Notes: generated by a model from the letters alone, not told the origin. A stretch of 64,000 bases of DNA from Eledone cirrhosa (GCA_964016885.1 OZ024752.1:18414001-18478000), one strand, 5' to 3'; counted from the first letter of the stretch, positions 29,101-62,000 are shown. Translations and numbers: made by a program.

Positions 29101-30704
29101 ACCAACTGTGGAACTAGTACCAACTTTGACTATCGACACACTGTGGAACTAGTACCATCTTTGACTATCAACACGCGGACTGTGGAATTAGTACCAACTT
29201 TGACTATCAACACACGAACAGTGGCACTAGTACCAACTTTGACTATCAAGACAAGGACTGTGGAACTACTACCAACTTTGACTATCAACACACCAACTAT
29301 GGAACTAGTACCAACTTTGACTATCAACACACCAACTGTGGAACTAGTACCAACTTTGACTATCGACACACGAACTGTGGAACTAGTACCAACTTTGTCT
29401 ATCGACACACGAACTGTGGAACTAGTACCAACTTTGACTATCGACACACGAACTGTGGAACTAGTACCAACTTTGACTATCAACACACGGACTGTGGAAC
29501 TAGTACTAAATTTGACTATCAACACACCAACTGTGGAACTAGTACCAACTTTGACTATCAACACACGAACTGTGGAACTAGTACCAACTTTGACTATCAA
29601 CACATCAACTGTGGAACCAGTACCAACTTTGAATATCAACACACCAACTGTGGAACTAGTATCAACATTGACTATCAACACACCAACTGTGGAACTAGTA
29701 CCAACTTTGAATATCAACACACCAACTGTGGAACTAGTACCAACTTTGAATATCAACACACCACCTGTGGAACTAGTACCAACTTTGAATATCAACACAC
29801 CAACTGTGGCACTAGTATCAACTCCGACTAACAACACACCAACTGTGGAACTAGTACCAACTACGACTATCAACACACCAACTGTGGAACTAGTACCAAC
29901 TTTGACTATCAACACACGGACTGTGGAACTAGTACGGACTTTGACTATCAACACACCAACTGTGGAACTAGTACCAACTTTGACTATCAACACACCAACT
30001 ATGGAAATAGTACCAACTTTGACTATCAATACACTAACTGTGGAACTAGTATCAACTCCGACTATCAACACACCAACTGTGGAACTAGTACCAACTACGA
30101 CTATCAACACACCAACTGTGGAAATAGTACCAACTTTGACTATCAACACACGAACAGTGGCACTAGTATCAACTCCGTCTATCAACATACCAACTGGGGA
30201 ACTAGTACCAACTTTGACTATCAACACACCAACTGTGGAACTAGTACCAACTTTGACTATGAACACACCAACTGTGGAACTAGTACCAACTTTCACTATC
30301 AACACACCAACTGTGGAACTAGTACCAACTTTGACTATCAACACACCAACTGTGGAACTAGTACCAACTTTGACTATCAACACACCAACTGTGGAACTAG
30401 TACCAATTTTGACTATCAACACACCAACTGTGGAACTAGTACCAACTTTGACTATCAACACACCAACTGTGGAACTAGTACCAACTTTGAATATCAACAC
30501 ACCAACTGTGGCACTAGTATCAACTCCGACTAACAACACACCAACTGTGGAACTAGTACCAACTTTGACTATCAACACACCAACTGTGGAACTAGTACCA
30601 ACTACGACTATCAACACACCAACTGTGGAACTAGTACCAACTTTGACTATCAACACACCAACTGTGGAACTAGTACCAACTCCGACTATCAATACACCAA
30701 CTGT
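8173..30704. repeat. 39-bp satellite array, roughly 575-580 monomers, consensus AACTGTGGAACTAGTACCAACTTTGACTATCAACACACC
   Basis: Continuous tandem array. Recurrent 35-bp monomers (…ATCGACACACTGTGG…) delimit higher-order blocks. Confidence 0.99.
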
Positions 30705-32555
30705 GTCCTACACGAGTGAAAGTATAAGGAAAAAAAGATGAAATCGAAAATGCAACTGGAGTCTTATTTTAAAAAATATATATATATTTATTTGGTTCCT
30801 TTACCGGTTTCGCAGTTCAGCTTTTCAAAAGTAGAGTTGAGATGGAGGGTCTGTGGTTTTTCTCACATCTGGTTGGTCTCTGAATGTTACTTGTTTTATA
30901 TGGAAAAAGTGGCTCGAAATGCCAGGTTTTTCGAGAAGTAATTTGATTGGTTGGTCAATAATTATAATAAATTTCGCGCCAGTTCGCGTTACAAAGTTCT
31001 TCAAACAAGGGTGGGGGGAGGGGTGTCGCAGGTTGTTTTTTTCATATATGAGTGTTTGAATTTCTTTTTACTTAAAAAGGGGGCCCACGAAAGCTTTTTT
31101 TTAATAAACGTATATTGATTGGTTATAAATGAAATTATGGCTGTCACGTGAACAAGTTTTCATTAAATTTTCGCGCCCTTATTTGGAAATCCATTCTGTA
31201 GACTTTTTAGAGAATTTTATGATAATTAAAAGATAATGGTCAAGAGAAATGGGATGGGAGAATTGTTCTGGTTCAGTGAATATGGTTAGTTCGCTGGGGT
31301 GTCAGAATTCAGATTTTCTATTGAATAAAGAAAGTAAAGATATGTATGTTTATTTGTGTGCTTGTGTGTGTGTGTGTTGTGTGTGTGTATTTGAATTTCT
31401 TTTTACTTAAAAAAAGGGGCTCACGAAGGCTTTTTTTTAATAAACGTAATTTGATTGGTTATAAATGGAATTATGGCTGTCACGTAAACAAATTTTCATT
31501 AAATTTTCACGCCCTTATTTGGAAATCTATTCTGTAGCCTATTTAGAGAATTTTATGACAAGCAAAAGTCAACACACAACCCAAGAAATGCGGAAGCTTA
31601 CAACACTTTTCACAAGAACATCCCACTACTAAAACAAAACCCAAGAATGAAAAAAGCCCTTGAAACACACAAAATAATCAAAAGCAAAAGACAACCGAAA
31701 TCACTGAAAACATTACTCACCAATGCCAAATTACCTACCACAAACCCACAACCAAGTGTCAAAAAACGTGGTCGCTCTAATTGTGGAACCTGCACTCACA
31801 TAACACCCATATACACACACACACAACTCCCTCCCCCATTTCTACTAATAGAATCATCTTCCAATACACACACACACACACACAAGCACACAAATAAACA
31901 TACATATCTTTACTTTCTTTATTCAATAGAAAATCTGAATTCTGACACCCCAGCGAACTAACCATATTCACTGAACCAGAACAATTCTCCCATCCCATTT
32001 CTCTTGACCATTATCTTTTAGTTATCATAAAATTCTCTAAAAAGTCTACAGAATGGATTTCCAAATAAGGGCGCGAAAATTTAATGAAAACTTGTTCACG
32101 TGACAGCCATAATTTCATTTATAACCAATCAAATTACGTTTATTTAAAAAAAAAGCCTTCGTGCGCCCCCTTTTTAAGTAAAAAGAAATTCAAACACTCA
32201 TATATGAAAAAACAACCTGTGACCCCCCCCCCCCCCCCCTCCCCCACCCTTGTTTGAAGAACTTTGTAACGCGAACTGGCGCGAAATTTATTATAATTAT
32301 TGACCAACCAATTAAATTACTTCTCGAAAAACCTGGCATTTCGAGCCACTTTTTCCATATAAAACAAGTAACATTCAGAGACCAACCAGATGTGAGAAAA
32401 ACCACAGACGCTCCATCTCAACTCTACTTTTGAAAAGCTGAACTGCGAAACCGGTAAAGGAACCAAATAAATATATATATATTTTTTAAAATAAGACTCC
32501 AGTTGCATTTTCGATTTCATCTTTTTTTCTTTATACTTTCACTCGTGTAGGACAC
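30703..32555. repeat. Long inverted repeat (arms ~30703-31385 and ~31865-32555) of a Penelope-like element terminus
   Basis: GTGTCCTACACGAGTGAAAGTATAAG at the left end is mirrored by CTTATACTTTCACTCGTGTAGGACAC at the right end; ORFs 30738(+) and 32520(-) translate almost identically. Confidence 0.92.
31557..31805 (+). pseudogene. Penelope-like element ORF fragment (RT C-terminal linker leading into the GIY-YIG zinc knuckle)
   Basis: THNPRN..NIPLLKQNPRMKKAL..IIKSKRQPKSLKTLLTNAKL..SVKKRGRSNCGTCTHI matches the PLE R.P.NL..LL...C....C..C..I pattern. Confidence 0.75.
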
Positions 32556-33666: not shown

Positions 33667-35037
33667 ACTGGTGACCCCGACGTGATTTTAAAAAAAAAAG
33701 AACAACACGTGGTTTAACTTTCATGAACCCGCCTACGACAACATCTTTGGAAGGAAAAAAATTAGCTATATTTTCAAAATTATAGCACGGAAACATTTTT
33801 CTTTCGATACGGCTTCCTGCAATATCAACAAACAAGCAAACACCGAACTCACGTAGTGACTTACGGCTCTTCAACGCTCGACTTCACTTTGATAGCAACA
33901 GCAACAACAATTCTACTAGCTTCCCAAAGAAATTTCAAAGAAAAGAAAAGGCGAACTTTTTGTTAAAAAACAATTCTTTCTTTCTTCTCTTTTTACAGGC
34001 AATGTTTGGACATTTATTTCTTTTAAACTGTATAATATGAAAATTCATTTTTTTTTCTATCATTGTATATATGACTGCACGCACACATTTTCTTTGCTGC
34101 ATTACATGCCTGCATATGCACGCACATTTCTTCGTCACACACCGACATGTTGTTGTCTATGGTATATGATCTCCAAGTGTCGTAATATTATGCGAGATCC
34201 CTTTTCACCTGGTGGAGGTACCAAAACATGCTGTCGACACTTGCAGCTTAACTCACCTGCACCACAACACGAGAATGCTAATTGCAGCTGGATTCAAACA
34301 GTTTCGCATCTCGTTGCACACTAATCGTCCTATAGCATAACAACCTCCATCTTGTTGCTTTACCCGACTCACTGGAAAAACAACAAATGAAACTAGACCT
34401 GGCAGCATTTCCACCATTTCTCCTATGGATTCGCCAGAAATATGGAATTTCCATTTCAACTGCTACCCACCTACAGATTCAACTTGCTCTTTTCTTTTCA
34501 AAGCAACTAGCCATATATTTTCCTGGCTGCCTAGCACTTCCGGCAATTCATCTGGGAGGCCGACATTTTCTCGTCTACCCATCATCTTCTTGCCAGCTCT
34601 GCTATAACATTTACCATAACAGCTCTGGTATAACACTTACCATAACAGCTATACAGCTCTGGTAAAGCATGAATAGCACCATCATTGACAACACCTACTG
34701 GTAAACTACCATAACAGCTTCATCCACAGCTCTGATACAACACTTACCATCAACATTTAATGCAAGAACAGCAACTTTTCCCATGTCAGACTTTATCCGT
34801 TTTCTGTTAGACCCCTGATGGTCACGTATAAATAGCAAAACAGCTAGTTATTTTACACAGCAGCTCAACATGGCCCTTAGCGCCTCATTTTTCTTCTTAC
34901 AGGCATTTTTTTGTTCAATTTTTTTCATTGATGTGCTCTTTCAGCATTTTTCCTGCTGATTCAATTTTATATATCGTCTTGCGACTAGGAAGGGCGTTCA
35001 ACGCCAAGCCTGACCAGGGAGGTCCGACATCTGGACT

Positions 35038-36393
35038 TCATTTCTCAGTATACTACTGATATTCGGTACATTAAGGGTGCCACCAACTCAGCAGCTGATG
35101 CCCTATCGCGCATGGAGCTTAACTCAATCCACACCACTGCCACTATCGATCTCCAGAAGATTGCAGCGGATCAACAGAATGACGAGGAACTTCTGCAGCT
35201 CCGGAAATCATCCTTGAAATTGCAAGAATACTCGCTGCCCTCTTCTTCAGGATATATTTGGTGCGACATCTCCACAGGCCACGAGCGCCCATACGTGCCC
35301 CAGAAACTTCGACGCGACGTTTTTTCGGCACTGCATTCTCTGGCACATCCTGGCATCCGTGCCACGCAGAAACTGATGGTTGCCCGCTTTGTGTGGCCCA
35401 ACATCAACAAGGACACCCGCGTGCCAGAAGGCGAAAATTCACCGGCACATCAAAGCCCCGATCGGTTCTTTCGCAACACCTGATGCACGGTTCCAACATG
35501 TACACATAGACCTCGTTGGATCTTTGCCTCCTTCTCACAACTACACTCATCTTCTCACCTGTGTCGACCGATTTTCTCGCTGGCCAGAAGCTTTTCCCCT
35601 AACGGATATTACTGCGGAAACTGTCGCTAAAACGCTAGTTTTTCACTGGGTTTCGCGTTTCGGCATATCCGTGACCATCACTACGGATAGAGGACATCAG
35701 TTCGATTCGCACCTCTTTACCGAGCTGACTCGTCTCCTCGGGTGTAAACACATCCGTACAACGGCGTATCACCCTGCATCTAACGGCATGGTAGAACGTT
35801 TCCACCGACAGCTAAAAGCAGCCATCAAGGCTTACGGAGACTCCACTAACTGGTTCGAATACCTCCCACTCATTCTTCTCGGTATTCGTTCCACTGTTAA
35901 GGAGGGAGTCGGACATTCTCCGGCTGAAATGTTGTATGGCACCGTACTCGCTCTACCCGGGTAAATGATCGCTCCTGTTTCGCCACAAGAACTTCCAGAT
36001 CCAACAAAATATGTGCACCGTTTACGGTCATCGATGTCGCATCTGTCTCCTTCGGGCTCTAAACACGTTACTTCACACATACCAAAAGACATCGATACAT
36101 GGACGCATGTTTTCGTTAGAAATGACGGTATTCCATCGCAACTTCGTCCGCCGTATTCCGGGCCCTATAAGGTGATACAGAAACGCCCTAAGTATTTCGT
36201 CCTCGACTTGAACGGGAAACGAAATACCGTCTCCATTGACCGTTTAAAAAAAGCGTTCATAGAACAGGAATTGCCACCAGTACCCACCGTTTCTCCAGCA
36301 GACTCACCAACAACTTTGCCCGACACAATCACGACAAATTCTGCACAACCCCGACACACCAAATCTGGGAGAACAGTTCGATGGCCCACGTGA
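35038..36393 (+). pseudogene. Ty3/Gypsy pol remnant: end of RNase H plus integrase (HHCC, DDE core, GPY motif), with a frameshift and a stop
   Basis: FISQYTTDIRYIKGATNSAADALSR; LHSLAHPGIRATQKL; [27 protein letters not shown]; PPYSGPYKV..TVSIDRLK. Frame break at ~35415 and TAA at 35962-35964. Confidence 0.95.
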
Positions 36394-39248: not shown

Positions 39249-40413
39249 ACTGGATTATTCGCTACAGCTGAGAGAAAAGTGTATACAAAAGTAGAGTTTT
39301 AATATTCATTTTATTAAGGTTAGTGTTAGGACTTCCGTTTTCTGGAGAAAGCGTCAATTGCAAGCATTTCGGATGTTTAGATAATTATTTCTCACCAAAC
39401 GTGAGAGGTGTGTAGTTCTGCATGACCTCGATAGTCTTTTCGCACCCTTTCACCGCCCCCTTTTTTCTAGCAATCTAGTCGTTTCTGACTAGTTTTGGAG
39501 GTCATATACGTTGATAACGCGCGAAAAATAAAAAAGGTAGAGAAAATTCCAGGAAAAAGTCGATTACGAGAACCTTGGAGGACAGATAAGTTGAAAGCAC
39601 AATTTTTTCTCCACTGAAATCGAGGTGGTTGGTCTATAGATCTACCTTTTCCTTTAATCATTATCAAACATAATTTAATTTTAATCATTTTTCTGTCACT
39701 AATAAGTCAAATTCCTGTGTATACGGTAGGTAAAAAAAAAGAAGAAACTAATTGATGTCCATATTGGGCGATATCCAATTTTAGCGGCCTAAATGCCGCT
39801 TACTTGCTGCAGTTGCTGCTTACTTCAATGTATGAGGCTATTCCAACAAATTTACATTCCCCTTTTTTTAGCCGTTAAAAGAAATATAGATTTATTTATT
39901 GTTTTTTTTTTTGCGATTTATTTGCCACTGGGGCATAGATTTCTTTATTTGCCCCTTTTTTGTTTGTTTGTTTGTTTTTTGGCGATTTATTAGCCTTTTG
40001 GGGTCACACACGCCCCCGTAGAAAGTGTGCGACCTTTCTGCCAGGGAGCACAGAGAGAGGGGGGTGCTCCCTTCTTCTCTTACCTGTACAAGCCGATATA
40101 GAGAGATGGCCCACTTACACGGGCCATTATTGTTACTTTCACCCATCTTTCATGGAATTGGCTGGGACTGAGTGCCTTTTTCTCCACCTTGATCCTTCTT
40201 TCGAAGTGGTATCGGAAGAAGAGGACCATTTGTTGGCCGGCGACATATCCCCATAGTTTCCTCGTTGCAAACGCATCTGGGACATTTCTTTTCCAAGGGG
40301 TTTCCGTCCCGGAATCCGTGTCTGTAGAGCCTTTCCCGAACGGGCAGGGCCCCTCGGTATAATAGTAAGTATTAGTGGTTGTAATAAAAATGCAATCAAA
40401 ATGTAATAAATAC

Positions 40414-40549
40414 CTTCACTGATTTCTTTCCTTATATTATCAACAGAAGTTGGTATGTCACCCAAAGTTCGCTTTGTATGTTCCCGAATAGCAGTGAATT
40501 TTGATAAAACTGTTTCTAATTCCTTCTCCACAGTAAGACAAATATCCAT
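40414..40549 (-). pseudogene. RMND5: Captured first coding exon of RMND5/GID2, left-arm copy
   Basis: MDICLTVEKELETVLSKF...KEISE followed by a GT donor at 40413-40412; mirror image of the right-arm copy. Confidence 0.75.
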
Positions 40550-40721
40550 GTGTAGTTGAAGAGGATAAGTATGAAAGAACAGTCATTTAAATTTACAGAT
40601 GGACAGATGTGGTGTTTGGCAGGGTTTGAGATATATAGAAAAATAATTATTTACAGAAAAAGAAAATAATAATAAAGAATTATTATAATTTTTTAAAGAT
40701 TTATATCTTTTTTGACTACAC

Positions 40722-40857
40722 ATGGATATTTTTCTTACTGTGGAGAAGGAATTAGAAACAGTTTTATCAAAATTCACTGCTATTCGGGAACATACAAAGC
40801 GAACTTTGGGTGACATACCAACTTCTGTTGATAATATAAGGAAAGAAATCAGTGAAG
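40722..40857 (+). pseudogene. RMND5: Captured first coding exon of RMND5/GID2 (CTLH E3 ligase subunit), right-arm copy
   Basis: MDIFLTVEKELETVLSKFTAIREHTKRTLGDIPTSVDNIRKEISE resembles the recalled RMND5A N-terminus MDQCVTVERELEKVLHKF; similarity stops at a G|GTATTT donor followed by AT-rich intron-like sequence. Confidence 0.75.
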
Positions 40858-42213
40858 GTATTTATTACATTTTGATTGCATTTTTATTACAACCACTAAT
40901 ACTTACTATTATACCGAGGGGCCCTGCCCGTTCGGGAAAGGCTCTACAGACACGGATTCCGGGACGGAAACCCCTTGGAAAAGAAATGCCCCAGATGCGT
41001 TTGCAACGAGGAAACTGTGGGGATATGTCGCCGGCCAACAAATGGTCCTCTTCTTCCGATACTACTTCGAAAGAAGGATCAAGGTGGAGAAAAAGGCACT
41101 CAGTCCCAGCCAATTCCATGAAAGATGGGTGAAAGTAGCAATAATGGCCCGTGTAAGTGGGCCATCTCTCTATATCGACTTGTACAGGTAAGAGAAGAAG
41201 GGAGCACCCCCCTCTCTCTGTGCTCCCTGGCAGAAAGGTCGCACACTTTCTACGGGGGTGTGTGTGACCCCAAAAGGCTAATAAATCGCCAAAAAACAAA
41301 CAAACAAAAAAAGGGGCAAATAAAGAAATCTATGCCCCAGTGGCAAATAAATCGCAAAAAAAAAACAATAAATAAATCTATATTTCTTTTAACGGCTAAA
41401 AAAAGGGGAATGTAAATTTGTTGGAATAGCCTCATACATTGAAGTAAGCAGCAACTGCAGCAAAATTGGATATCGCCCAATATTGTGATATCTCTATCAT
41501 ATATACAAACATTTCACAGAGCAACAATTTTAGCAGAGATTTAATTTGTTTGGCTGAAAATTTCTTTGACGTCACAGATGTATCCGGTTGTAGAGAAGTG
41601 ATTTCTTTTAATGTCGACCACAATTCTCCTACCTTCTTCTTATTTCATTATTATTAACGAGGGACAAAGCTTAAAGTAAGTAATATTGTTTCTTTATTTA
41701 AATATTTCAACTATTAACTTGTATGTTTTAATAACACTGAAAGTATATATTGTTAATCTACTATGTTTACATCTGCATCGCTGATTCACCTTAACTGGCT
41801 TGCTTTTAATTTTTATTTATTTTTCTCAAAAGTATAGATAGCTTTACTCATTTGCTGCTGTTAATGTTAAAAATTATATGATGTTAAATATTGTGTATAG
41901 ATACAAAGAGAACAAAATCGCATTTTAGCTATAATTGTTGCAAATTGTGAATCTAAATCCAAACCTTGTTCGAGCAGGAAATACACCTAAGCAATGGCAA
42001 TCGGGATTAATAACTCCAGAGTAATAAGACTCACTATTTAGAATTAATAATATATATATATATATTCGTTACCTTGGATCTATCAACTTTGGTAGAAATA
42101 TCAAAGGGTAAGAGCACTTAGTCCATAGGACGAGTTAAGTATAATTAGTTACTTTTGTAACTAAATATATAAGCTAGACATGGCCTGGGCCAATACTGGC
42201 CGAAACCTATCAA

Positions 42214-42252
<39 letters not shown>

Positions 42253-42349
42253 ATATAATATATCCCAAACTACATAGGATAATTTACAAACACATGATAA
42301 ACAACACGTACGTTGTATATAGTGAATGTCAAACTCTTACATTTCTGGC

Positions 42350-42898
42350 CACTACCATGCTGTTAGCTGTCAGAAGTGAAAGTTTCGTCAACCTTCTCAA
42401 TCGTAAACATCCTTTATTTCCGGATTACCACGCAGGTTGACTTTGTCTTTCATCCTTACGGGGTCGATAAAATAAAGTACCAGTAATGCACTTTGTAATT
42501 GCTGGCCTTGTCCCAAAAGTAGAAACAGTTATTTTAATAAAGCATATCGATGTAAGCGGAGTTACTTAAATGAAAATATAGGTGGCCCTTAAAAGGGCCA
42601 AATTAGAAAACAAATATATGGTTATCAAATTTTTTTCACCAACCCTATACATGAAATTGATAACCATGACTATGAAAATATAAATGATTAAATCCAATTT
42701 ATTTGATAACCATGACTTGTTTTCTAATTAACTTAAATTTGTTTTCTAATTTGGCCCTTTTAAGGGCCACCTATATTTTCATTTAAGTAACTCCACTGAC
42801 ATCGATATGCTTTATTAAAATAACGCGTGGTAATACGGAAATAAAGGATGTTTACGATTGAGAAGGTTGACGAAACTTTCACTTATAGCATGGTAGTG
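42350..42898. repeat. Palindromic element with a SINE fragment (42434-42527, +) inserted in the left arm only
   Basis: CACTACCATGCT..GAAAGTTTCGTCAACC..CCACGC[SINE]GTTATTTTAATAAAGC.. mirrored from ~42737 to 42898. Confidence 0.85.
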
Positions 42899-43021
42899 CC
42901 TAATTCTCTTATCCTTACACCATACATATACACGCACACATACAGGCTGTCCCAAAAATGTAGACACACTTCAATCTTTAAAAATTGCACTAAAATAAAT
43001 TCTGTTTTATATGCATTTGGG

Positions 43022-43128
43022 CAAATCCCGCCGAGGTTCATTTTGCCTTTCATCCTTACTTGGTCGATAAAATAAAGTACCAGTAATGCACTGAGATAAT
43101 TGCTGGCCTTGTGCCAAAAGTAGAAACA
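43022..43128 (+). mobile_element. 5'-truncated SINE
   Basis: CAAATCCCGCCGAGG..GCCTTTCATCCTTAC..AAAATAAAGTACCAG..TAGAAACA, same family as 39012. Confidence 0.85.
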
Positions 43129-43357
43129 ATTATTTAAATTATGTAAACATTTTTGGGTGTTTACATATAATTGAATTGTGTCTGTAGATCATTTTATTTT
43201 TAGGAAAGGCTGTGCACTCTAATAAATATTGCCTGTATGTATATATATATATATATAAAATGAAATGATGATGATGATGATATGTGTGTATATGTGTACA
43301 TATACACACATATATATGTTGTACATGTGTATATACATCTATAAGTTGGTGGATGTG

Positions 43358-43885
43358 GGCGATATCCAAGTGTGCGACCTTTCTGCCAGGGAGTACAGAG
43401 AGAGGGGGGTGCTCCCTTCTTCTCTTACCTGTACAAGCCGATATAGAGAGATGGCCCACTTACACGGGCCATTATTGCTACTTTCACCCGAAAAAGGCAC
43501 TCAGTCCCAGCCAATTCCATGAAAGATGGGTGAAAGTAGCAATAATGGCCCGTGTAAGTGGGCCATCTCTCTATATCGGCTTGTACAGGTAAGAGAAGAA
43601 GGGAGCACCCCCCTCTCTCTGTGCTCCCTGGCAGAAAGGTCGCACACTTTCTACGGGGGCGTGTGTGACCCCAAAAGGCTAATAAATCGCAAAAAAGGGG
43701 CAAATAAAGAAATCTATGCCCCAGTGGCAAATAAATCGCAAAAAAATAAAAATAAATAAATCTATATTTCTTTTAACGGCTAAAAAAAGGGGGAATGTAA
43801 ATTTGTTGGAATAGCCTCATACATTGAAGTAAACAGCAACTGCAGCAAGTAAGCGGCATTTAGGCCGCTAAAATTGGATATCGCC
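43358..43885. mobile_element. Shorter deletion derivative of the same Merlin-like foldback element
   Basis: GGCGATATCCAA...TTGGATATCGCC with perfect 8-bp TSD TGGATGTG (43350-43357, 43886-43893); sequence nearly identical to the outer arms of 39767-41477; lacks the RMND5 exon. Confidence 0.9.
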
Positions 43886-44492
43886 TGGATGTGTGTAAAA
43901 AAATATCACGTATTCACAATCCAAATTGAAAATAATGACGTACGTAACTGTCAAAAATTAGTTTCACTTTTGAGACCGGCCGTTTTGACGTATGCCAAAA
44001 TTTGAATCTTAATGTTAAAACTCATTAATTTAGCAAATCATAAAAAAAAAGAATGCTTATTTTTATGTCTTTTGGTAATCGGTATGTAGCACTCCAATAA
44101 TATTTGTAGATTCGCAGCAAATCACACAAACCCACATATTTATATATGTATGTGTTTGACAAATATATATTCCAGGCTTGAAAAAATAAATATAACACAC
44201 ACACTGGTGATGATATGTATGTATATATATATTTAAAATATGTTTCTTCCTCTATGCTTTTCTTTTCTTTCCTCTATGCTTTTCTTTTCTTTCCTCTTTC
44301 TTCAATAATTTAAATTATTTAACTGTTATATTGATGCCAAGTATTTTTTAAGCTGTCTCTATTGTATGTATTATATACTTTTCTCGTGTTCTCAATATTA
44401 AGGTATATAAATATTGAGTTTTGTCATATATTACTCACTACCATGACTGAATCTTAACCATCTACCATGTCAGGGTATGTCATGCATCATCT

Positions 44493-44559
44493 TATTTTAT
44501 CTGATGAGGACGTACTGTTGAAGTTAACTCAGTACCTCTGAAATATGTATAATAAAATA
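44493..44559 (+). ncRNA. Minimal type I hammerhead ribozyme (second, diverged family member)
   Basis: TATTTTAT / CTGATGA / GGACGTACTG-TTGAAGTTAACT-CAGTACCTCT / GAAA / TATGTA / TA / ATAAAATA. Confidence 0.72.
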
Positions 44560-44599
44560 TACTTGATCACAAGAATATCTATTTTGTTAATATTTTGAA

Positions 44600-44639
<40 letters not shown>

Positions 44640-44642
<3 letters not shown>

Positions 44643-44971
44643 CTATCGCCGTATTTTGACTAAAGAAATCAAAGAAATTATTTAGCCTGATAGTGGGGTT
44701 AAGAACTCTCGGAGAAATGGAAAAAGATGAGTATTGACGTATATGGGAGTCGAACCCACATCTGCGGTTATCCAAACTACTGTGCTACCATTTACACCAA
44801 CACATCAATATTTGGTGTAATGGTAGCACAGTGGTCTGGATAACAAAAGATGTGGGTTCGACTCCCATGTACGTCAATACTCATCTTTTTCCATTTCTCC
44901 GAGGGTTCTTAACCCCACTATCAGGCTAAATAATTTCTTTAATTTCTTTAGTCAAAATACGGCGATAGCTT
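44640..44971. repeat. Palindrome of two back-to-back tRNA-like heads
   Basis: AAGCTATCGCCGTATTTTGAC... mirrored by ...GTCAAAATACGGCGATAGCTT. Each arm has TGGTGTAATGGTAGCAC (A-box) and GGTTCGACTCC (B-box) pointing outward from the centre at ~44805. Confidence 0.85.
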
Positions 44972-46087
44972 ACATTTCTAATTTCAAACCCGCTCGCTGT
45001 TTCGAAATTATTCTTACTTGACATATATATATTTAAACGCATGTTTTAATAAACCTGTGTATAATTTTTATCGTAATTGTTTTCTCTAGAATACAATCTT
45101 TAAAAACTATCAATGTCTTTTCTGTGTGATATGGGAATATTTAGATGTCATTTCTAAAATATTCTACGACAGGGGAGACTCGTATCTGAGGGCTATTTAA
45201 CAGTGTTTTGGACTACTATTTCTAGCATAAAATGTTTTTTTGGCAGGGCGGTTAGTTGGTTCTCTGGGTTATCTCCCTTCGACCACAAACCGATCTAAAA
45301 TGCCTGACCCACCCTTTACGCCAATTGACTTGTTTCTTCGTGACTTTTTTAACAATGCATTTTTTTAAGTTTTGCGGACAAATGTGTAATTTAGGTTTCT
45401 GAAGAGAAAATTAAAGCATACATTCAAGGGAAGTGTTAACAAGACTAGAATATGGGATTATAGGTAGATTTGGCTGCTATTTTGTATTTTGTAACATATT
45501 AAAATTAATACTTTGAAAGATATCTTGTTGATGTTTCTAGCGTAGTGAAAGGGATCGATTTTAGTTATTTGACTGGTGTTGCCAGCAAGGTTCTTTGTTT
45601 GGGAAGCTTTCTATGGCTGGATGTTCTTCCTATCACTAGCTATTTTACAGAGTGTGTCTATCGTGTAGATCACCAACACTAGAGATGTTGTCATGTCTTT
45701 GACACGACAGAAGGATTCTCTCGAACCTTTTTTGGCATGGCTTCTACAACAGGACACCCTTTCTACATTGCCAACAACCTTACAAGGTGTGATGTGCAGC
45801 TTTCGTGGCACCAGCACTAGAGAGTTTGCCATCGTCATTGACTCCACTAAAGAGCTCTCTCCACTCCACGTATGGATAGAATGTGTGAGTGGGTCTTAAA
45901 TATAAGTATGATGTCATGGGTGCATATCAAGTGTAGTATTTGATAGGATGATATGGGGGGGGGGGGGCTGATGCAGATAATTACAAGGGGCTGATAGTGG
46001 TGGAGGATCAGAGGGTGGATGATCATTATATATATAAATATATACACATGTGCATATATTTATATATACATATGTACACACATATAC

Positions 46088-46515
46088 ATCATCATTAAAA
46101 TCATCGTTTATACGTCTGTTTTTCCACACTTGCATCAGTTGGATGGGTCCTTCTCAGCATAGCATCTCTCCACTCACCATGTTCCTTCATCATCTCCTCT
46201 CTGATTTCAGAAATTTGAAATCAGCTCTCACTCCCTCTGCTCAGGTCTTTCTTGGTCTACCTCTACTGCCGTTTCCTCCCTAGCATTTCTTCACCCAGTG
46301 ATGATCATTCCAGCTTTTCTGTCAGCTCATCCAGGCTCTGCCTTACCCTCACACTTACATTGCCTTACTCTCATACGTACCATGCAATATTACACTTTAC
46401 ACACAGGTGTCATACAGTTGTCTTTTTGCATATAGGGAGAAACCTTTTTTGTAGTCAAAGTGGGAGTAACTCTCTAAACTTTTTCTATTCTATCCTTATT
46501 TTAGCTACTATGCTA
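46088..46515 (-). mobile_element. RTE LINE 3' fragments, antisense
   Basis: (CAT)n tail at the left end; reverse strand shows GRPRKT-type and KFRELLPLL-type RTE C-terminal sequence. Confidence 0.65.
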
Positions 46516-47789
46516 CTATGGGCTATTATAGAGGAGTTTAAGACCGGCTGCCCGTGGGAACTTCTGTATGTGGATGATCTTACACTTATAGCTGAATCTA
46601 TGGTGGAACTAGAGAAGAAATTCAAAACATGGAAGCAGGGACTAGAAAGAAGGGGTCCTAGATTCAACCTGACAAAGACTAAGGTCCTCGTAAATAGATG
46701 AGAAAACAGAACCCCTCAGGGAAATGGCTTTGCTCAGTATGCAGGAAAGGTGTAGGTAGAAATTCCATCCTCTGGCCCAAATGCTAACTATGGGTACACA
46801 AGAGATGTAGTGGGATCTCAGGAAGTTTAGTTAAGAATATAGGCTTTACATGTTGCAGCTGCACCAAGACAGTAAACAGCAAACGGCCACAGGAAACAAG
46901 CACTACCAAATTCTGGGAGGGCTATAAAGAAACAGTAGATAGCTTTTGCTACCTAGGTGACCAGGATAAGAACGGGATGGAAGAAGTTCAGGGAGCTACT
47001 ACCACTGCTAGCTGCAAAAGACTTTTCCCTCAAAATGAAAGGCAGACTGTATGATGCGTGCATATGAACAGCAATGTTACATGGTAGTGAGACATGGGCG
47101 TTGTGTGCAGAAGACTTGCATAGATTAGAAACGAAGCTTGCATGCTCCGATGGATGTGTAATAGTAATATACGCGAATGTCAAAGCACAAACGAAGTGAG
47201 AGAGAGAGTCTGAGCATAAGAGGTATCAAATGTTGCATGCAGGAGAGGAGATTGCGTTATTATGGACATGTGATGCGTATGAAGGATGACAGTTGCATAA
47301 AAAGGTGCAAAGCACTAAAAGCCGATGGAAGCCATGGAGTGGGGAGAACCAAGAAGACCTGGGATGAGGTGATAAAAGCTGACCTCGCCCAAATGCACCT
47401 CTCAAAGGCGATGACACAGGTCCGAGACCTCTGGCATTACACAGTAATACAGAAGACCCGAGTTCCCATGGGTACATGCCAAAGCTGAAGCATATAGACA
47501 ATATGCTGCCATCCCCTCCCACTGTAAAGTGGTCGTTGAGGTGTCATGACAAAAAGCACCCAGCCCACACTGTAAAGTGGGCATGTAGGCGCCACGATAA
47601 AAAAGCACCTAGTACTCACTGTAAATGAGGTTGGTGTTAGGAAGGGCATCTAGCTGTAGAAACCGAGGCAAAAATCAGTCCTGTATGGGCAAGACATGGT
47701 CACATGATCTGGCATTGCCCACAATAGGACAATCCGTCTAACCCATGCTAGCGTGGAGACATCGACTTAAAACGGTGATGATGATGATG
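46516..47789 (+). mobile_element. 5'-truncated decayed RTE LINE (RT C-terminal half and 3' UTR)
   Basis: CPWELLYVDDL (RT catalytic motif), NLTKTKVL, Cys-rich CSVCRKGVGRNSI..WVHKRC, KKFRELLPLL, RRLRYYGHVMR, GRTKKTW; 3' UTR with GTTAGGAAGGGCATC and a (GAT)n tail. Confidence 0.9.
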
Positions 47790-47995
47790 CCCTCAGAGCA
47801 CCCTCCTCTACTGTCAATTAAGTCACCTAGATAGTTGAAGCTCTCAACCACTTCTATAGACCCTTTTTGGGACTCAAAAAGGTTTATGTCACTGGCGTTC
47901 TTCCCTTTGATTTCCCCTGTACATCTACATACAAAGTCTTCCCTTCCTGTTAGTTTACTCATTATCCCACTACATCTCTTGTGTACCCTAAATTT
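47790..47995 (-). mobile_element. RTE LINE internal fragment, antisense
   Basis: EVVESFNYLGDLIDSRGGCSE in ORF 47738-47962(-). Confidence 0.75.
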
Positions 47996-48807
47996 ACATG
48001 TGTGTATTTGTATATATATAAATGAGAAAACTCATCGCTAGAACAGCTGTTAAAACAGCTAAATGCTGTGAAAAACAGCGATGGGCCAAAATGCCTCTCC
48101 AGGTCTGTATATAGCAGATTTCTTCCAGTACTAGACTGGTACTTTTTTTTATCAACTCGAATGGATGAAAGGCAAAGTTGACCTCGGCAGTACATGAACT
48201 GAGAGAACAGAAAGCCAAAACGAATACTGCAAAGCATTCTATCCAACATTCTAATGACTCTGCTAATTTACCACCTCTTTAGTTCCACTACAGAAAGACA
48301 AGATGGTCAAAGCCTTTCATCAGAGTTCTGCTTGATCAAATTTAACCTTGGGTTAAACAATAACAACTAAAGAATATTCAATTTCTAGCTTACCATTTCA
48401 TTTTAAACTTTGCTTTCTGCATTTGATTAACTTCATCTCCAGTGACCTCAATCCACACACTGAGGCTTCTTGGTGGACATTGTTCTCAAAGTTAAGAGTT
48501 CTCTGTGTTATATATATATAATATTCTATGTACTATACATGCACCTTTGATGAGTTGTAGTGCACCTGAGCACTGTACACAATAATTTCATTATTATTAT
48601 TATAAACATAATTCCGAGTAACATTGGTTTATCCATTAATTGACTGACTGTTGTGTAAACAGATGTAAACACTTCACAATGGAGTGTCAGTATTATAAAG
48701 AAGAGAGATGGTTTTATAATATATCTATATATCTATTTACTTGCAGATAGGAAAGTACATTGCAGCTTGTTGATTTATGAAGTGATACACCTGATTAAAT
48801 ATTAGCT

Positions 48808-48951
48808 ATGGATTTTAAGGATGTCCCTTTTTCCTTTGTGCCCCACGAAGTAAAACTAAAACTACTGAATTTAGATCGACCAAGCAGGGGTTATGGAAAC
48901 AACTGGAAATTTTTGGCTGGGCAATTTGGCTTTAATGCCAAACAAGTTTTA
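48808..48951 (+). CDS. Coding exon 1 (death domain N-half); the exon probably starts at acceptor 48747, implying an upstream non-coding exon
   Basis: ATG at 48808; MDFKDVPFSFVPHEVKLKLLNLDRPSRGYGNNWKFLAGQFGFNAKQVL then GTAAGT; upstream TACTTGCAG acceptor. Not in the ORF track. Confidence 0.82.
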
Positions 48952-56087: not shown

Positions 56088-59000
56088 CACTCGAGATGTA
56101 TAACAGTGTTAGCTGTTCACTACCAGTGAACTGAGGTAACACCCCTTATCTCAGCTTCTAACACTAGAGATGTATTACAGTGTTAACTGTTCACTACCAG
56201 TGAACTGAGGTAACACCCCTTATCTCAGCTTCTAACACTGGAGATGTATTACAGTGTTAACTGTTCACTGCCAGTGATCTGAGGTAACACCCCTTATCTC
56301 AGCTTCTAATGCTGGAGATGTATTACAGTGTTAACTGTTCACTACCAGTGAACTGAGGTAACACCCCTTATCTCAGCTTCTAATACTAGAGATGTATTAC
56401 AGTGTTAACTGTTCACTGCCAGTGAACTGAGGTAACACCCCTTATCTTAGCTTCTAATGCTGGAGATGTATTACAGTGTTAACTGTTCACTACCAGTGGA
56501 CTGAGGTAACACCCCTTTTCTCAGCTTCTAACACTAGAGATGTATTACAGTGTTAACTGTTCACTACCAGTGAACTGAGGTAACACCCCTTATCTCAGCT
56601 TCTAATGCTGGAGATGTATTACAGTGTTAACTGTTCACTGCCAGTGAACTGAGGTAACACCCCTTATCTCAGCTTCTAACACTGGAGATGTATTACAGTG
56701 TTAGCTGTTCACTGCCAGTGAACTGAGGTAACACCCCTTATCTCAGCTTCTAACACTGGAGATGTATTACAGTGTTAACTGTTCACTGCCAGTGAACTGA
56801 GGTAACACCCCTTATCTCAGCTTCTAATGCTGGAGATGTATTACAGTGTTAACTGTTCACTGCCAGTGAACTGAGGTAACACCCCTTATCTCAGCTTCTA
56901 ACACTGGAGATGTATTACAGTGTTAGCTGTTCACTACCAGTGAACTGAGGTAACACCCCTTATCTCAGCTTCTAACACTGGAGATGTATTACAGTGTTAA
57001 CTGTTCACTACCAGTGAACTGAGGTAACACCCCTTATCTCAGCTTCTAATGCTGGAGATGTATTACAGTGTTAACTGTTCACTGCCAGTAAACTGAGGCA
57101 ACACTCCTTATCTCAGCTTCTAACACTGGAGATGTATTACAGTGTTAGTTGTTCACTACCAGTGAACTGAGGTAACACCCCTTATCTCAGCTTCTCACAC
57201 TGGAGATGTATTACAGTGTTAACTGTTCACTACCAGTGAACTGAGGTAACACCCCTTATCTCAGCTTCTAATGCTGGAGATGTATTACAGCGTTAACTGT
57301 TCACTACCAGTGAACTGAGGTAACACCCCTTATCTCAGCTTCTCACACTAGAGATGTATTACAGTGTTAACTGTTCACTACCAGTGAACTGAGGTAACAC
57401 CCCTTATCTCAGCTTCTAATGCTGGAGATGTATTACAGTGTTAACTGTTCACTACCAGTGAACTGTGGTAACATCCCTTATCTCAGCTTCTAACACTAGA
57501 GATGTATTACAGTGTTAACTGTTCACTACCAGTGAACTGAGGTAACACCCCTTATCTCAGCTTCTAATGCTGGAGATGTATTACAGTGTTAACTGTTCAC
57601 TACCAGTGGACTGAGGTAACACCCCTTATCTCAGCTTCTAACACTAGTGATTTATTACAGTGTTAACTGTTCACTACCAGTGAACTGAGGTAACACCCCT
57701 TATCTCAGCTTCTAACACTGGAGATGTATTACAGTGTTAACTGTTCACTGCCAGTGAACTGAGGTAACACCCCTTATCTCAGCTTCTAACACTAGAGATG
57801 TATTACAGTGCTAACTGTTCACTGCCAGTGAACTGAGGTAATACCCCTTATCTCAGCTTCTAATGCTGGAGATGTACTACAGTGTTAACTGTTCACTGCC
57901 AGTGAACTGAGGTAACACCCCTTATCTCAGCTTCTAATGCTGGAGATGTACCACAGTGTTAACTGTTCACTGCCAGTGAACTGAGGTAACACCCCTTATC
58001 TCAGCTTCTAATGCTGGAGATGTACTACAGTGTTAACTGTTCACTGCCAGTGAACTGAGGTAACACCCCTTATCTCAGCTTCTAACACTGGAGATGTATT
58101 ACAGTGTTAACTGTTCACTACCAGTGAACTGAGGTAACACCCCTTATCTCAGCTTCTAATGCTGGAGATGTATTACAGTGTTAACTGTTCACTACCAGTG
58201 AACTGAGGTAACATCCCTTATCTCAGCTTCTAACACTAGAGATGTATTACAGTGTTAACTGTTCACTACCAGTGAACTGAGGTAACACCCCTTATCTCAG
58301 CTTCTAACACTAGAGATGTATTAGTGTTAACTGTTCACTACCAGTGAACTGAGGTAACATCCCTTATCTCAGCTTCTAACACTAGAGATGTATTACAGTG
58401 TTAACTGTTCACTACCAGTGAACTGAGGTAACACCCCTTATCTCAGCTTCTAATGCTGGAGATGTATTACAGTGTTAACTGTTCACTACCAGTGAACTGA
58501 GGTAACACCCCTTATCTCAGCTTCTAACACTGGAGATGTATTACAGTGTTAACTGTTTACTACCAGTGAACTGAGGTAACACCCCTTATCTCAGCTTCTA
58601 ATGCTGGAGATGTATTACAGTGTTAAGTGTTCACTACCAGTGAACTGAGGTAACACCCCTTATCTCAGCTTCTAACACTAGAGATGTATTACAGTGTTAA
58701 CTGTTCACTACAAGTGAACTGAGGTAACACCCCTTATCTCAGCTTCTAACACTGGAGATGTATTACATTGTTAACTGTTCACTGCCGGTGAACTGAGGTA
58801 ACACCCCGTATCTCAGCTTCTAACACTCGAGATGTATTACAGTGTTAACTGTTCACTACCAGTGAACTGAGGTAACACCCCTTATCTCAGCTTCTAACAC
58901 TAGAGATGTATTACAGTGTTAGCTGTTCACTACCAGTGAACTGAGGTAACACCCCTTATCTCAGCTTCTAACACTAGAGATGTATTACAGTGTTAACTGT

Positions 59001-62000
59001 TCACTACCAGTGAACTGAGGTAACACCCCTTATCTCAGCTTCTAACACTAGAGATGTATTACAGTGTTAACTATTCACTACAAGTGACCTGAGGTAACAC
59101 CCCTTATCTCAGCTTCTAACACTGGAGATGTATTACAGTGTTAACTGTTCACTACAAGTGACCTGAGGTAACACCCCTTATCTCAGCTTCTAACACTGGA
59201 GATGTATTACAGTGTTAACTGTTCACTACCAGTGAACTGAGGTAACACCCCTTATCTCAGCTTCTAACACTAGAGATGTATTACAGTGTTAGCTGTTCAC
59301 TGCCAGTGAACTGAGGTAACATCCCTTATCTCAGCTTCTAACACTAGAGATGTATTACAGTGTTAACTGTTCACTACCAGTGAACTGAGGTAACACCCCT
59401 TATCTCAGCTTCTAACACTAGAGATGTATTACAGTGTTAACTGTTCACTACAAGTGACCTGAGGTAACACACCTTATCTCAGCTTCTACTACTGGAGATG
59501 TATAACAGTGTTAACTGTTCACTGCCAGTGAACTGAGGTAACACCCCTTATCTCAGCTTCTAACACTAGAGATGTATTACAGTGTTAACTGTTCACTACA
59601 AGTGACCTGAGGTAACACCCCTTATCTCAGCTTCTAACACTGGAGATGTATTACAGTGTTAACTGTTCACTACAAGTGACCTGAGGTAACACCCCTTATC
59701 TCAGCTTCTAACACTGGAGATGTATTACAGTGTTAACTGTTCACTACCAGTGAACTGAGGTAACACCCCTTATCTCAGCTTCTTACACTAGAGATGTATT
59801 ACAGTGTTAGCTGTTCACTGCCAGTGAACTGAGGTAACACCCCTTATCTCAGCTTCTAACACTAGAGATGTATTACAGTGTTAACTGTTCACTACCAGTG
59901 AACTGAGGTAACACCCCTTATCTCAGCTTCTAACACTAGAGATGTATTACAGTGTTAACTGTTCACTACAAGTGACCTGAGGTAACACCCCTTATCTCAG
60001 CTTCTAACACTGGAGATGTATTACAGTGTTAACTGTTCACTGCCAGTGAACTGAGGTAACACCCCTTATCTCAGCTTCTAACACTGGAGATGTATTACAG
60101 TGTTAACTGTTCACTACCAGTGAACTGAGGTAACATCTCTTATCTCAGCTTCTAACACTAGAGATGTATTACAGTGTTAGCTGTTCACTACCAGTGAACT
60201 GAGGTAACACCCCTTATCTCAGCTTCTAATGCTGGAGATGTATTACAGTGTTAGCTGTTCACTACCAGTGAACTGAGGTAACATCCCTTATCTCAGCTTC
60301 TAACACTAGAGATGTATTACAGTGTTAACTGTTCACTACCAGTGAACTGAGGTAACACCCCTTATCTCAGCCTCTAATGCTGGAGATGTATTACAGTGTT
60401 AACTGTTCACTACCAGTGGACTGAGGTAACACCCCTTATCTCAGCTTCTAACACTAGTGATGTATTACAGTGTTAACTGTTCACTACTAGTGAACTGAGG
60501 TAACACCCCTTATCTCAGCTTCTAACACTGGAGATGTATTACAGTGTTAACTGTTTACTACCAGTGAACTGAGGTAACACCCCTTATCTCAGCTTCTAAT
60601 GCTGGAGATGTATTACAGTGTTAAGTGTTCACTACCAGTGAACTGAGGTAACACCCCTTATCTCAGCTTCTAACACTAGACATGTATTACAGTGTTAACT
60701 GTTCACTACAAGTGAACTGAGGTAACACCCCTTATCTCAGCTTCTAACACTGGAGATGTATTACAGTGTTAACTGTTCACTACCAGTGAACTGAGGTAAC
60801 ACCCCTTATCTCAGCTTCTAATGCTTGAGATGTATTACAGTGTTAGTTGTTCACTGCCAGTAAACTGAGGTAACATCCCTTATCTCAGCTTCTAACACTG
60901 GAGATGTATTACAGTGTTAACTGTTCACTACCAGTGAACTGAGGTAACACCCCTTATCTCAGCTTCTAACACTGGAGATGTATTACAGTGTTAACTGTTC
61001 ACTACCAGTGAACTGAGGTAACACCCCTTATCTCAGCTTCTAACACTGGAGATGTATTACAGTGTTAACTGTTCACTACCAGTGAACTGAGGTAACACCC
61101 CTTATCTCAGCTTCTAATGCTGGAGATGTATCACAGTGTTAGTTGTTCACTGCCAGTAAACTAAGGTAACACCCCTTATCTCAGCTTCTAACACTAGAGA
61201 TGTATTACAGTGTTAACTGTTCACTACAAGTGACCTGAGGTAACATCCCTTATCTCAGCTTCTAACACTGGAGATGTATTACAGTGTTAACTGTTCACTA
61301 CAAGTGACCTGAGGTAACACCCCATATCTCAGCTTCTAACACTGGAGATGTATTACAGTGTTAACTGTTCACTACCAGTGAACTGAGGTAACACCCCTTA
61401 TCTCAGCTTCTAACACTAGAGATGTATTACAGTGTTAGCTGTTCACTGCCAGTGAACTGAGGTAACATCCCTTATCTCAGCTTCTAACACTAGAGATGTA
61501 TTACAGTGTTAACTGTTCACTACCAGTGAACTGAGGTAACACCCCTTATCTCAGCTTCTAACACTGGAGATGTATTACAGTGTTAACTGTTCACTACAAG
61601 TGACCTGAGGTAACACCCCTTATCTCAGCTTCTAACACTGGAGATGTATTACAGTGTTAACTGTTCACTGCCAGTGAACTGAGGTAACACCCCTTATCTC
61701 AGCTTCTAACACTAGAGATGTATTACAGTGTTAACTGTTCACTACAAGTGACCTGAGGTAACACCCCTTATCTCAGCTTCTAACACTGGAGATGTATTAC
61801 AGTGTTAACTGTTCACTACCAGTGAACTGAGGTAACACCCCTTACCTCAGCTTCTTACACTAGAGATGTATTACAGTGTTAGCTGTTCACTGCCAGTGAA
61901 CTGAGGTAACATCCCTTATCCCAGCTTCTAACACTAGAGATGTATTACAGTGTTAACTGTTCACTACCAGTGAACTGAGGTAACACCCCTTATCTCAGCT

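Follow-up and report, generated by a model that had tools for sequence, protein, structure and literature searches.

A Merlin transposon family of Eledone cirrhosa with an RMND5 exon and a LINE fragment inside its terminal arms

We describe here an inverted-repeat element at 39767–41477 of a 64,000-nt window of Eledone cirrhosa DNA (C12:18,414,001–18,478,000 of the 3.0-Gb assembly, G000; positions given without a prefix are counted from the first nucleotide of this stretch). Judged by its sequence, the element belongs to a young family of Merlin DNA transposons, as a gene-less copy that arose by deletion, and each of its arms has a copy of exon 1 of the host gene RMND5 together with the 3′ end of a long interspersed nuclear element (LINE). 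This is a real and well-supported family of gene-carrying terminal inverted repeat (TIR) transposons, which is new in its superfamily, in its copy number, in having the cargo within the arms, and in having the cargo in coding copies as well. We regard the explanation as a whole as quite probable, in which the cargo was likely taken up once and beside the transposase gene, the entire cargo-bearing end was likely copied over the opposite end, and the family spread by transposition with the exon as a likely neutral passenger.

The window element and its family

The element is 1,711 bp long, in agreement with the 1.7 kb of the original prediction, and has GGCGATATCC at both ends (GGCGATATCC at 39767 and GGATATCGCC at 41477) with the 5′-GG seen in Merlin TIRs. 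Its arms (39804–40567 and 40704–41463) are near-identical as had been proposed, with 98.0% identity over 764 aligned bp plus a 14-bp terminal match, but they are shorter than the ~790 bp first suggested; the right arm is short of 23 bp near its end, and the inter-arm gap is 136 bp rather than ~150 bp. The predicted 136-nt exon starting with ATG and followed by GT is present in each arm, reading outwards (40722–40857 on the + strand and 40549–40414 on the − strand) and with a Cys4Phe change in the right-arm copy. In the window copy, the leftmost 951 bp of a two-sided element of the kind described below are fused to a shortened right arm, and the copy has the following features:

39759..39766, + strand: left target-site duplication (TSD), CCATATTG, 7/8 identical with the right copy
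39767..41477, no strand assigned: whole non-autonomous Merlin element, an internal-deletion derivative of 1,711 bp
39767..39934, + strand: left terminal and subterminal Merlin sequence, with the GGCGATATCC end and AT-rich AAATAAATC-type repeats on the − strand (inner border approximate)
39935..40359, − strand: LINE 3′-end cargo of the left arm, with a zf-RVT remnant, 3′ untranslated region and LINE terminus, internally deleted (borders approximate)
40360..40717, − strand: RMND5 cargo of the left arm, made up of ~160 nt lying upstream of the ATG, the coding sequence of exon 1 and ~50 nt of intron 1, the 'spacer' included
40414..40549, − strand: coding part of RMND5 exon 1, left copy, 136 nt from ATG to donor
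40568..40703, − strand: unpaired 136-bp 'spacer', which is RMND5 5′ leader and the remnant of a longer left arm
40704..40911, + strand: RMND5 cargo of the right arm (exon coding sequence 40722–40857, GT donor at 40858)
40912..41335, + strand: LINE 3′-end cargo of the right arm (borders approximate)
41336..41477, + strand: Merlin sequence of the right subterminal and terminal regions; a 23-bp deletion here is specific to the window copy
41478..41485, + strand: right TSD, CAATATTG

The identity of the exon, which had been likened to the N-terminus of RMND5A/B, was settled by the host locus, the short peptide alone being weakly informative. The best PDB match of the 45-aa left-arm peptide was a weak one to residues 1–42 of human RMND5A (E 0.036), no domain was found when Pfam was searched with the 45-aa exon peptides, and a large protein database returned nine candidates for the element peptide with none at E ≤ 0.1. 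The decisive match was to exon 1 of the host RMND5 gene (C5:79,536,336–471), which agrees with the element peptide at 39/45 aa (tblastn, E 5e-23). The genome has seven exon matches to CTLH, and those on C5 belong to RMND5 (the C5 CTLH exon matches RMND5A in PDB at E 2e-16 and a Babylonia RMND5A-like relative at 69%). Host exon 1 sits 9.3 kb upstream of the C5 CTLH match, a 401-aa relative maps onto the locus in nine pieces giving a nine-exon map, and a contig from run X4 splices host exon 1 to exon 2, which is preceded by an AG acceptor. We could therefore reject the alternative, raised in the original prediction, that the window copy is the real RMND5 gene with its remaining exons adjacent, since the gene with all of its exons is on C5; apart from its intact ATG and donor, nothing speaks for this alternative.

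Alignment with this locus, as had been recommended, places the parental stretch of the cargo at C5:79,536,166–519 (~90% identity with gaps; 130/136 identical in the exon) and its 5′ breakpoint at C5:79,536,166–177. The RMND5 cargo covers ~160 nt above the ATG, the exon, and ~50 nt of intron (~85 nt in older-type copies), and the inter-arm 'spacer' derives from the RMND5 sequence upstream of the ATG. Putative promoter motifs ~110 bp farther upstream in the host (CCAAT-like and CCGGAAGT, with names which we assume) are absent from the cargo. All six differences between the element and host exons are replacements, and at five of them the host residue is shared by an outgroup protein, P0001, so that these five changes arose in the element. 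Between RMND5 and the element end, each arm has a LINE fragment in which zf-RVT can be recognised in a longer copy (L115; 31.1 bits with a cut-off of 27.5), and 37/40 scored matches among 2,593 candidates are free LINE copies at 89–91% identity, with RVT_1 upstream. On these alignments the cargo is shown to derive from the host RMND5 gene on C5 and from an abundant LINE.

The copy number and ends of the family were assessed across the genome. Exact matches to the terminal 17-mer number 214 + 230 (none for the control) and those to the exon 20-mer 115 with the host counted (again none for the control), and by hand count the first 100 listed 20-mer matches represent the host plus 99 arms at 63 loci, with both arms at 34 of them. 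In three runs from a single sample the exon contig had a depth of 641–799 and the unique flank one of 4.6–7.6, in agreement with ~100 copies; many family members are without the exon. Among the 30 loci retrieved, 14 had one exact end on each side and were surveyed for TSDs. The expected 8-bp TSD, which matches at 7/8 positions in the window copy, was perfect in 10/14 and 7/8 in two, with no 9-bp TSD in any of the 14, and these duplications at unrelated sites show that the family was dispersed by transposition. An assembly fold-back artefact was rejected as an explanation of the arms, which differ by 2% and by the 23-bp deletion, given also the dozens of separate insertions bearing TSDs of their own and a depth which fits ~100 copies.

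The family ends in GGCGATATCCAATTTT, and an open reading frame (ORF) between the same ends in L112 has a match to PF12762 (46.3 bits with a cut-off of 27) in which the D, D and E residues are aligned. This IS1595-type DDE transposase shares both ends and cargo with the RMND5-carrying elements: RMND5 sequence was present in 14/14 retrieved elements with a transposase of ≥84% identity (only 58 bp of leader in one case) and in 0/12 loci at 45–71%, with the caveat that the survey retrieved 30 of 137 matches and a few short >80% matches lie outside the 30. By its ends, TSD and transposase the family is a Merlin, as had been predicted from the termini, and the coding partners are likewise of Merlin type. 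An open transposase ORF of 316 aa is found in L146, from a sister family whose ends differ (GGCGATCCTTGG). We also considered whether the RMND5 exon might act as a promoter or first exon for the transposase, and rejected this as the exon is 3′ of the transposase or directed away from it.

A second family member in the window (43358–43885, no strand assigned; 528 bp) has LINE cargo without RMND5 and a perfect TSD, TGGATGTG. Elsewhere, some family members were found nested in others, within either the RMND5 cargo or the arms (L113:2562–3179 and L012/L013), and L113 also has an inverted pair of endonuclease fragments which we take to be Penelope-like. An intronless 351-aa ORF ~330 bp outside a sister-family Merlin (L161:2428–3480) presumably resembles a Brix-domain ribosome-biogenesis protein. 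Two unrelated Merlins, L119 (C1:45.54 Mb) and L121 (C4:282.85 Mb), have two inverted transposase matches in long arms (745 bp at 98% and 1,111 bp at 88%, respectively), and fold-back duplication may for this reason be common among the Merlins of this genome.

Origin and history of the cargo

Two arrangements of the cargo were found in the transposase-bearing copies. One-sided copies (L115 and L135), which have the longest cargo, consist of a short TIR, the transposase, RMND5, the LINE fragment and the end, and in two-sided copies (L087, L111, L112, L128 and L132) the 3′ arm is mirrored at the 5′ end over 526–1,121 bp; in L120 there is transposase sequence in both halves, identical over the aligned columns. 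TIR lengths are thus ~70–90 bp in the one-sided L115, 526–1,121 bp in coding copies and 764 bp in the window copy, with the last two exceeding the described Merlin range of 24–462 bp, which is descriptive rather than defining. A tree of 20 transposase rows, rooted on five sister-family rows, placed a truncated copy and the L115 and L135 types, which are one-sided, outside the clade holding the two-sided copies (support 94/91). The order of surviving structures suggested by this tree would run from one-sided copies to two-sided copies with arms of 0.5–1.1 kb around the transposase, and then to deletion derivatives, and the family seemingly holds every stage in one genome, from one-sided capture to mirrored arms and miniature derivatives.

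Comparison with the host exon argues for a single capture. The host base was found in 0/61 arms at four of the six exon sites, and in 2/61 and 1/61 arms at the other two, and the copies thus share the derived bases, as does a divergent subfamily whose exon has a 45-bp deletion. Arms diverge by 1.8% within an element compared to 2.1% between elements (16 elements), and as they are barely closer within than between, ongoing conversion is not demonstrated. The variants in 61 full exon arms from ~40 elements comprise 26 replacement and 7 silent changes (against 105 and 30 sites; ratio ~1.05), with 3 stops and 3 gaps, and arms differ on average by 0.75% from the commonest base. On these counts the exon peptide evolves neutrally and the burst is young, and protein-level selection on the cargo was rejected.

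The six copies inspected of this divergent subfamily, ending in GGCGATATCCAAAAATAC (L124–L127, L134 and L136), have two outward-facing RMND5 exons, both having a 45-bp in-frame deletion, which surround a palindromic region found upstream of the transposase. These copies have the same TSD and flanks, and because of this they are probably nested in and multiplied by another element.

The route by which the cargo arrived is more evenly balanced. The original prediction took the retained intron sequence to mean capture at the DNA level, and we do not consider this established because unspliced pre-mRNA has the intron too; this serves as a warning that a retained intron is no proof of DNA-level capture. 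The LINE fragment is 5′-truncated and 3′-intact, as it reaches the 3′ terminus of the LINE itself. At its truncation point it is immediately adjoined by the RMND5 piece in sense orientation, with a short GACAT stretch shared at the join between the intron piece and the LINE, both of which are on the same strand. The block therefore has the arrangement expected of a LINE chimera, with a piece of cellular RNA in sense on the 5′ side of a 5′-truncated, 3′-intact LINE, and no host intron sequence was found beyond the LINE. We give about even chances to the cargo having arrived by RNA as a single chimeric LINE insertion, in which the reverse transcriptase would have switched from LINE RNA to unspliced RMND5 pre-mRNA. 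This fits pieces that lie in sense and meet where the LINE is truncated, a LINE whose 3′ end is preserved, and a cargo with neither the promoter nor any host sequence past the LINE.

Somewhat less probable, though not by much, is that the same family had the same history but that RMND5 was captured at the DNA level, by gap repair or a replication template switch, into a Merlin already holding the LINE, or that a later deletion united the two pieces. This would account for the intron sequence and for a composite RMND5+LINE block without a surrounding TSD; internal deletions at short homologies are common in the Merlin family, and gap-filling and FoSTeST are published routes for animal Pack-TIRs (PMC8277862, from the part of that paper available). 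However, there is no host intron past the LINE, the join is exactly at the LINE 5′ truncation and on the same strand, the putative host promoter motifs were left behind, and human first-exon/LINE sense chimeras are on record (bioRxiv 10.1101/2025.02.02.635956, in the text available). The 3′ join does have a short homology, but the partner is a LINE, and an empty ancestor was not found. The flanks of the block are rearranged AT-rich repeats. A stand-alone RMND5+LINE copy without Merlin ends (L177) was considered as the founder and rejected, as it has the derived bases, is without both outer parts, and has no TSD.

A number of observations weigh against the history of single uptake, end copying and spread that we prefer. 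The base of the transposase tree is unresolved, the support of 94/91 is below the tool's starred threshold, and the two-sided clade includes L152 which is possibly one-sided. There was no intact transposase of the family among the 30 of 137 matches retrieved, with the best family ORF stopping ~40 aa early and the others having stops or frameshifts, and present mobility is consequently unproven; 2/14 elements had no clear TSD. Neither a cargo-free relative nor a TSD bracketing RMND5+LINE was found (30 of 66 matches retrieved with 12 inspected, plus 21 further loci), and with no empty Merlin of the family and no TSD around the block the capture route is undemonstrated. It should also be noted that neutral protein evolution is uninformative on selection at the RNA level.

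Transcripts, the neighbouring gene and other features of the window

No run is on record as RNA, and X4 was judged to be RNA-derived from two spliced contigs alone. Contigs of the element-type exon, leader and junctions have a depth of 23–32 in this run compared to 99.5 for the host mRNA contig. Junction contigs of two other copies are also present in X4 (C1:45,384,207 and C28:55,919,342; the 20 kb retrieved around each yielded no identifiable host gene). The X4 exon contig of element type stops precisely at the donor (40414). Use of the captured donor could be the reason, but a +1 copy variant explains this equally well (AT in 2/61 arms).

A transcript through the whole copy would fold into ~770 base pairs, and in the folding prediction the long double-stranded RNA anticipated for read-through has 771 left–right pairs in place of ~790. 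As 58/276 21-mers of the host exon-1 region also match the element perfectly, action in trans is possible. We nonetheless consider it distinctly unlikely that the hairpin copies are a trans-acting regulator whose diced or edited transcripts lower or tune the expression of RMND5 (CTLH/GID E3 ligase). The element-type and junction contigs in X4, and the exon 20-mer in both arms at 34/63 loci among the first 100 listed matches, are in keeping with such a role, but RMND5 mRNA is plainly present in X4, the depth there could be explained by pre-mRNA or by trace DNA of ~114 copies, the left junction of the window copy is nearly uncovered (depth 0.74 at 39652–39735), and the exon has been lost from many family members. 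Nor was there a signal of RNA editing, and the suggestion that the hairpin is an ADAR substrate is not supported so far: the A>G and T>C differences listed for X4 are all found in genomic copies, in a DNA-like run or as a host allele (41063, 41091 and 41178 are alleles of other copies, 41067 is found in a C4 copy, 41404 is also seen in run X2, and 40468 is the host allele). A regulatory function of the exon copies is probably absent.

The element sits at the 5′ end of a gene with Death and SEFIR domains, which we take from its domain content to be an Act1/CIKS-like immune adaptor. Its closest named relatives are Octopus vulgaris and Argonauta LOC115212340, and the 528-bp family member described above is located in its intron 1. 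The relevant features are:

41434..41675, + strand: first exon, non-coding, of the Death+SEFIR gene; it takes in 44 bp or more from the right end of the element and has a GTAAGT donor at 41676 (X4 contig 32)
48747..54830, + strand: coding exons of the Death+SEFIR gene, with the ATG at 48808

X4 contig 32 (depth 110) begins at 41434 inside the element, enters the unique flank and is spliced from 41675 to 48747 with a GTAAGT donor and an AG acceptor. Because it spans both the junction and the splice, the right end of the element is shown at the contig level to be part of a spliced Death+SEFIR transcript. At least some of the transcripts hold its last 44 bp, which would enter them either as a start site or by read-in. 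It seems to us unlikely that this gene has taken over the window copy for use as its promoter or first exon. The contig starts within the element and crosses the junction, the intron past the donor is without cover, and the junction contig is unbroken in all four of four runs, hinting at an insertion on both chromosomes. However, the contig has only 44 bp in the element, depth is given as one value for each contig, and a start cannot be read from contigs. Promoter-like motifs are also found in the unique flank itself, TGACGTCA at 41566 and CCGGTTGT at 41583 (again under names which we assume), and the main start may lie there. If the RMND5 donor were spliced to exon 2, the result would be no fusion but an upstream ORF that ends shortly ahead of the gene ATG, and no such join was seen among the contigs listed.

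At 39547–39555, 210 bp to the left of the insertion, is TTCCAGGAA, which is presumably a STAT-type motif, although one that is frequent by chance. By inserting where it did, the element may have put 1.7 kb between the Death+SEFIR first exon and promoter sequence upstream of it.

Several other features of the window were noted. A 22.5-kb array (8173–30705) has 580 copies of a 39-bp unit with 89% matches, and its long open frames of 13-residue repeats reach the right edge, so that it could be a satellite or a mucin-like exon. Directly adjoining it is an inverted-repeat element (30703–32555) with arms of 321 bp and 283 bp at 98–99%. Decayed frames at 34989–36393 are integrase-like, and we take these to be of the LTR-retrotransposon type. 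A 74-bp tandem array (56088–64000; at least 107 copies at 94%) starts ~1.3 kb past the Death+SEFIR stop codon.

Seen together, it is highly improbable that every part of a more far-reaching account is correct, in which a retrotransposon delivered the exon by RNA into a coding DNA transposon that now has >100 copies, many of them hairpins, with double-stranded RNA acting in trans on RMND5 and the CTLH ligase and single copies donating 5′ ends to genes such as Death+SEFIR. The system would nevertheless allow a sharp test of trans-acting RNAs from transposon-borne host exons in an animal, as element and host reads differ at six exon positions. In this genome, RMND5 read mapping and gene models are open to confusion by >100 decoys.

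Comparison with known systems

We found no gene-capturing Merlin in the literature covered, with most subscription papers and the Repbase/Dfam entries lying outside this coverage. Merlins are described as having 5′-GG TIRs of 24–462 bp with an 8- or 9-bp TSD and as being related to IS1016/IS1595 (PMC8101967, in the part available), and the elements reported here share with them the 5′-GG ends, 8-bp TSD and a DDE_Tnp_IS1595 transposase between the same ends. In contrast to the Merlins of that account, the arms here are 0.5–1.1 kb long and are largely host-gene and LINE sequence. Merlins have been reported in cephalopods, and the available text of those reports describes no gene capture (PMC10294476, PMC13282606).

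Human chimeras of mRNA first exons and LINE-1 have been verified by TSDs and often end at splice sites, and have the same sense arrangement with the 5′ piece of a gene on the 5′ side of a LINE 3′ end (bioRxiv 10.1101/2025.02.02.635956, as far as its text is available). In the present case the chimera is inside a DNA transposon, the join is ~85 nt into an intron, and a TSD was not found. The hAT element with histone H3 in Pseudocercospora, which has been made inactive through repeat-induced point mutation, is likewise a complete DNA transposon with captured housekeeping-gene sequence and many copies (bioRxiv 10.1101/550798); it differs in being fungal and a hAT, and the available text makes no mention of mirrored cargo.

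Plant Pack-MULEs are non-autonomous MULEs with a 9–11 bp TSD and cargo between the TIRs, and have been proposed as regulators of parental genes (PMC3310237, in the part available). They also carry gene fragments on long-TIR elements, but ours are Merlins with an 8-bp TSD and have the cargo within the TIRs and in coding copies as well, and so fall outside the strict definition. The original proposal that the cargo is part of the inverted repeat was well founded, since the exon is in both arms and this extends to coding copies. The 370 animal Pack-TIRs listed are mostly single-copy; in animal Pack-TIRs and Drosophila Ssk-FB4, similarly, a TIR transposon has carried a piece of a host gene, a few hundred bp in size, to a site distant from the parent, and there is chimeric transcription where it inserted (PMC8277862). 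Here too the parental locus lies elsewhere and the fragment is found at several loci with their own TSDs, but there are >100 exon copies and the cargo is inside both arms and in transposase-bearing copies. No Merlin label is found among the 370, with the word occurring once in the 12 supplement files and then as a column head (PMC8277862, in the material available). Being part of the terminal repeats of a coding element, the cargo is inherited by default, which can account for its being so much more numerous than most animal Pack-TIRs.

There is also a likeness in terms of structure to Galileo, a P-superfamily element of Drosophila mojavensis with TIRs >1 kb, in which formerly unique sequence adjacent to a TIR has been copied, inverted, to the other end and central regions are swapped between subfamilies (PMC3573991). 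The same relationship is seen between L115 or L135 and the two-sided copies, where unique subterminal sequence of the former is copied inverted at the opposite end of the latter. However, Galileo recruits its own internal sequence and, in the account available, its longest TIRs are never in near-complete copies (PMC3573991), whereas in Eledone cirrhosa arms of ~1 kb flank the transposase and have recruited a host exon.

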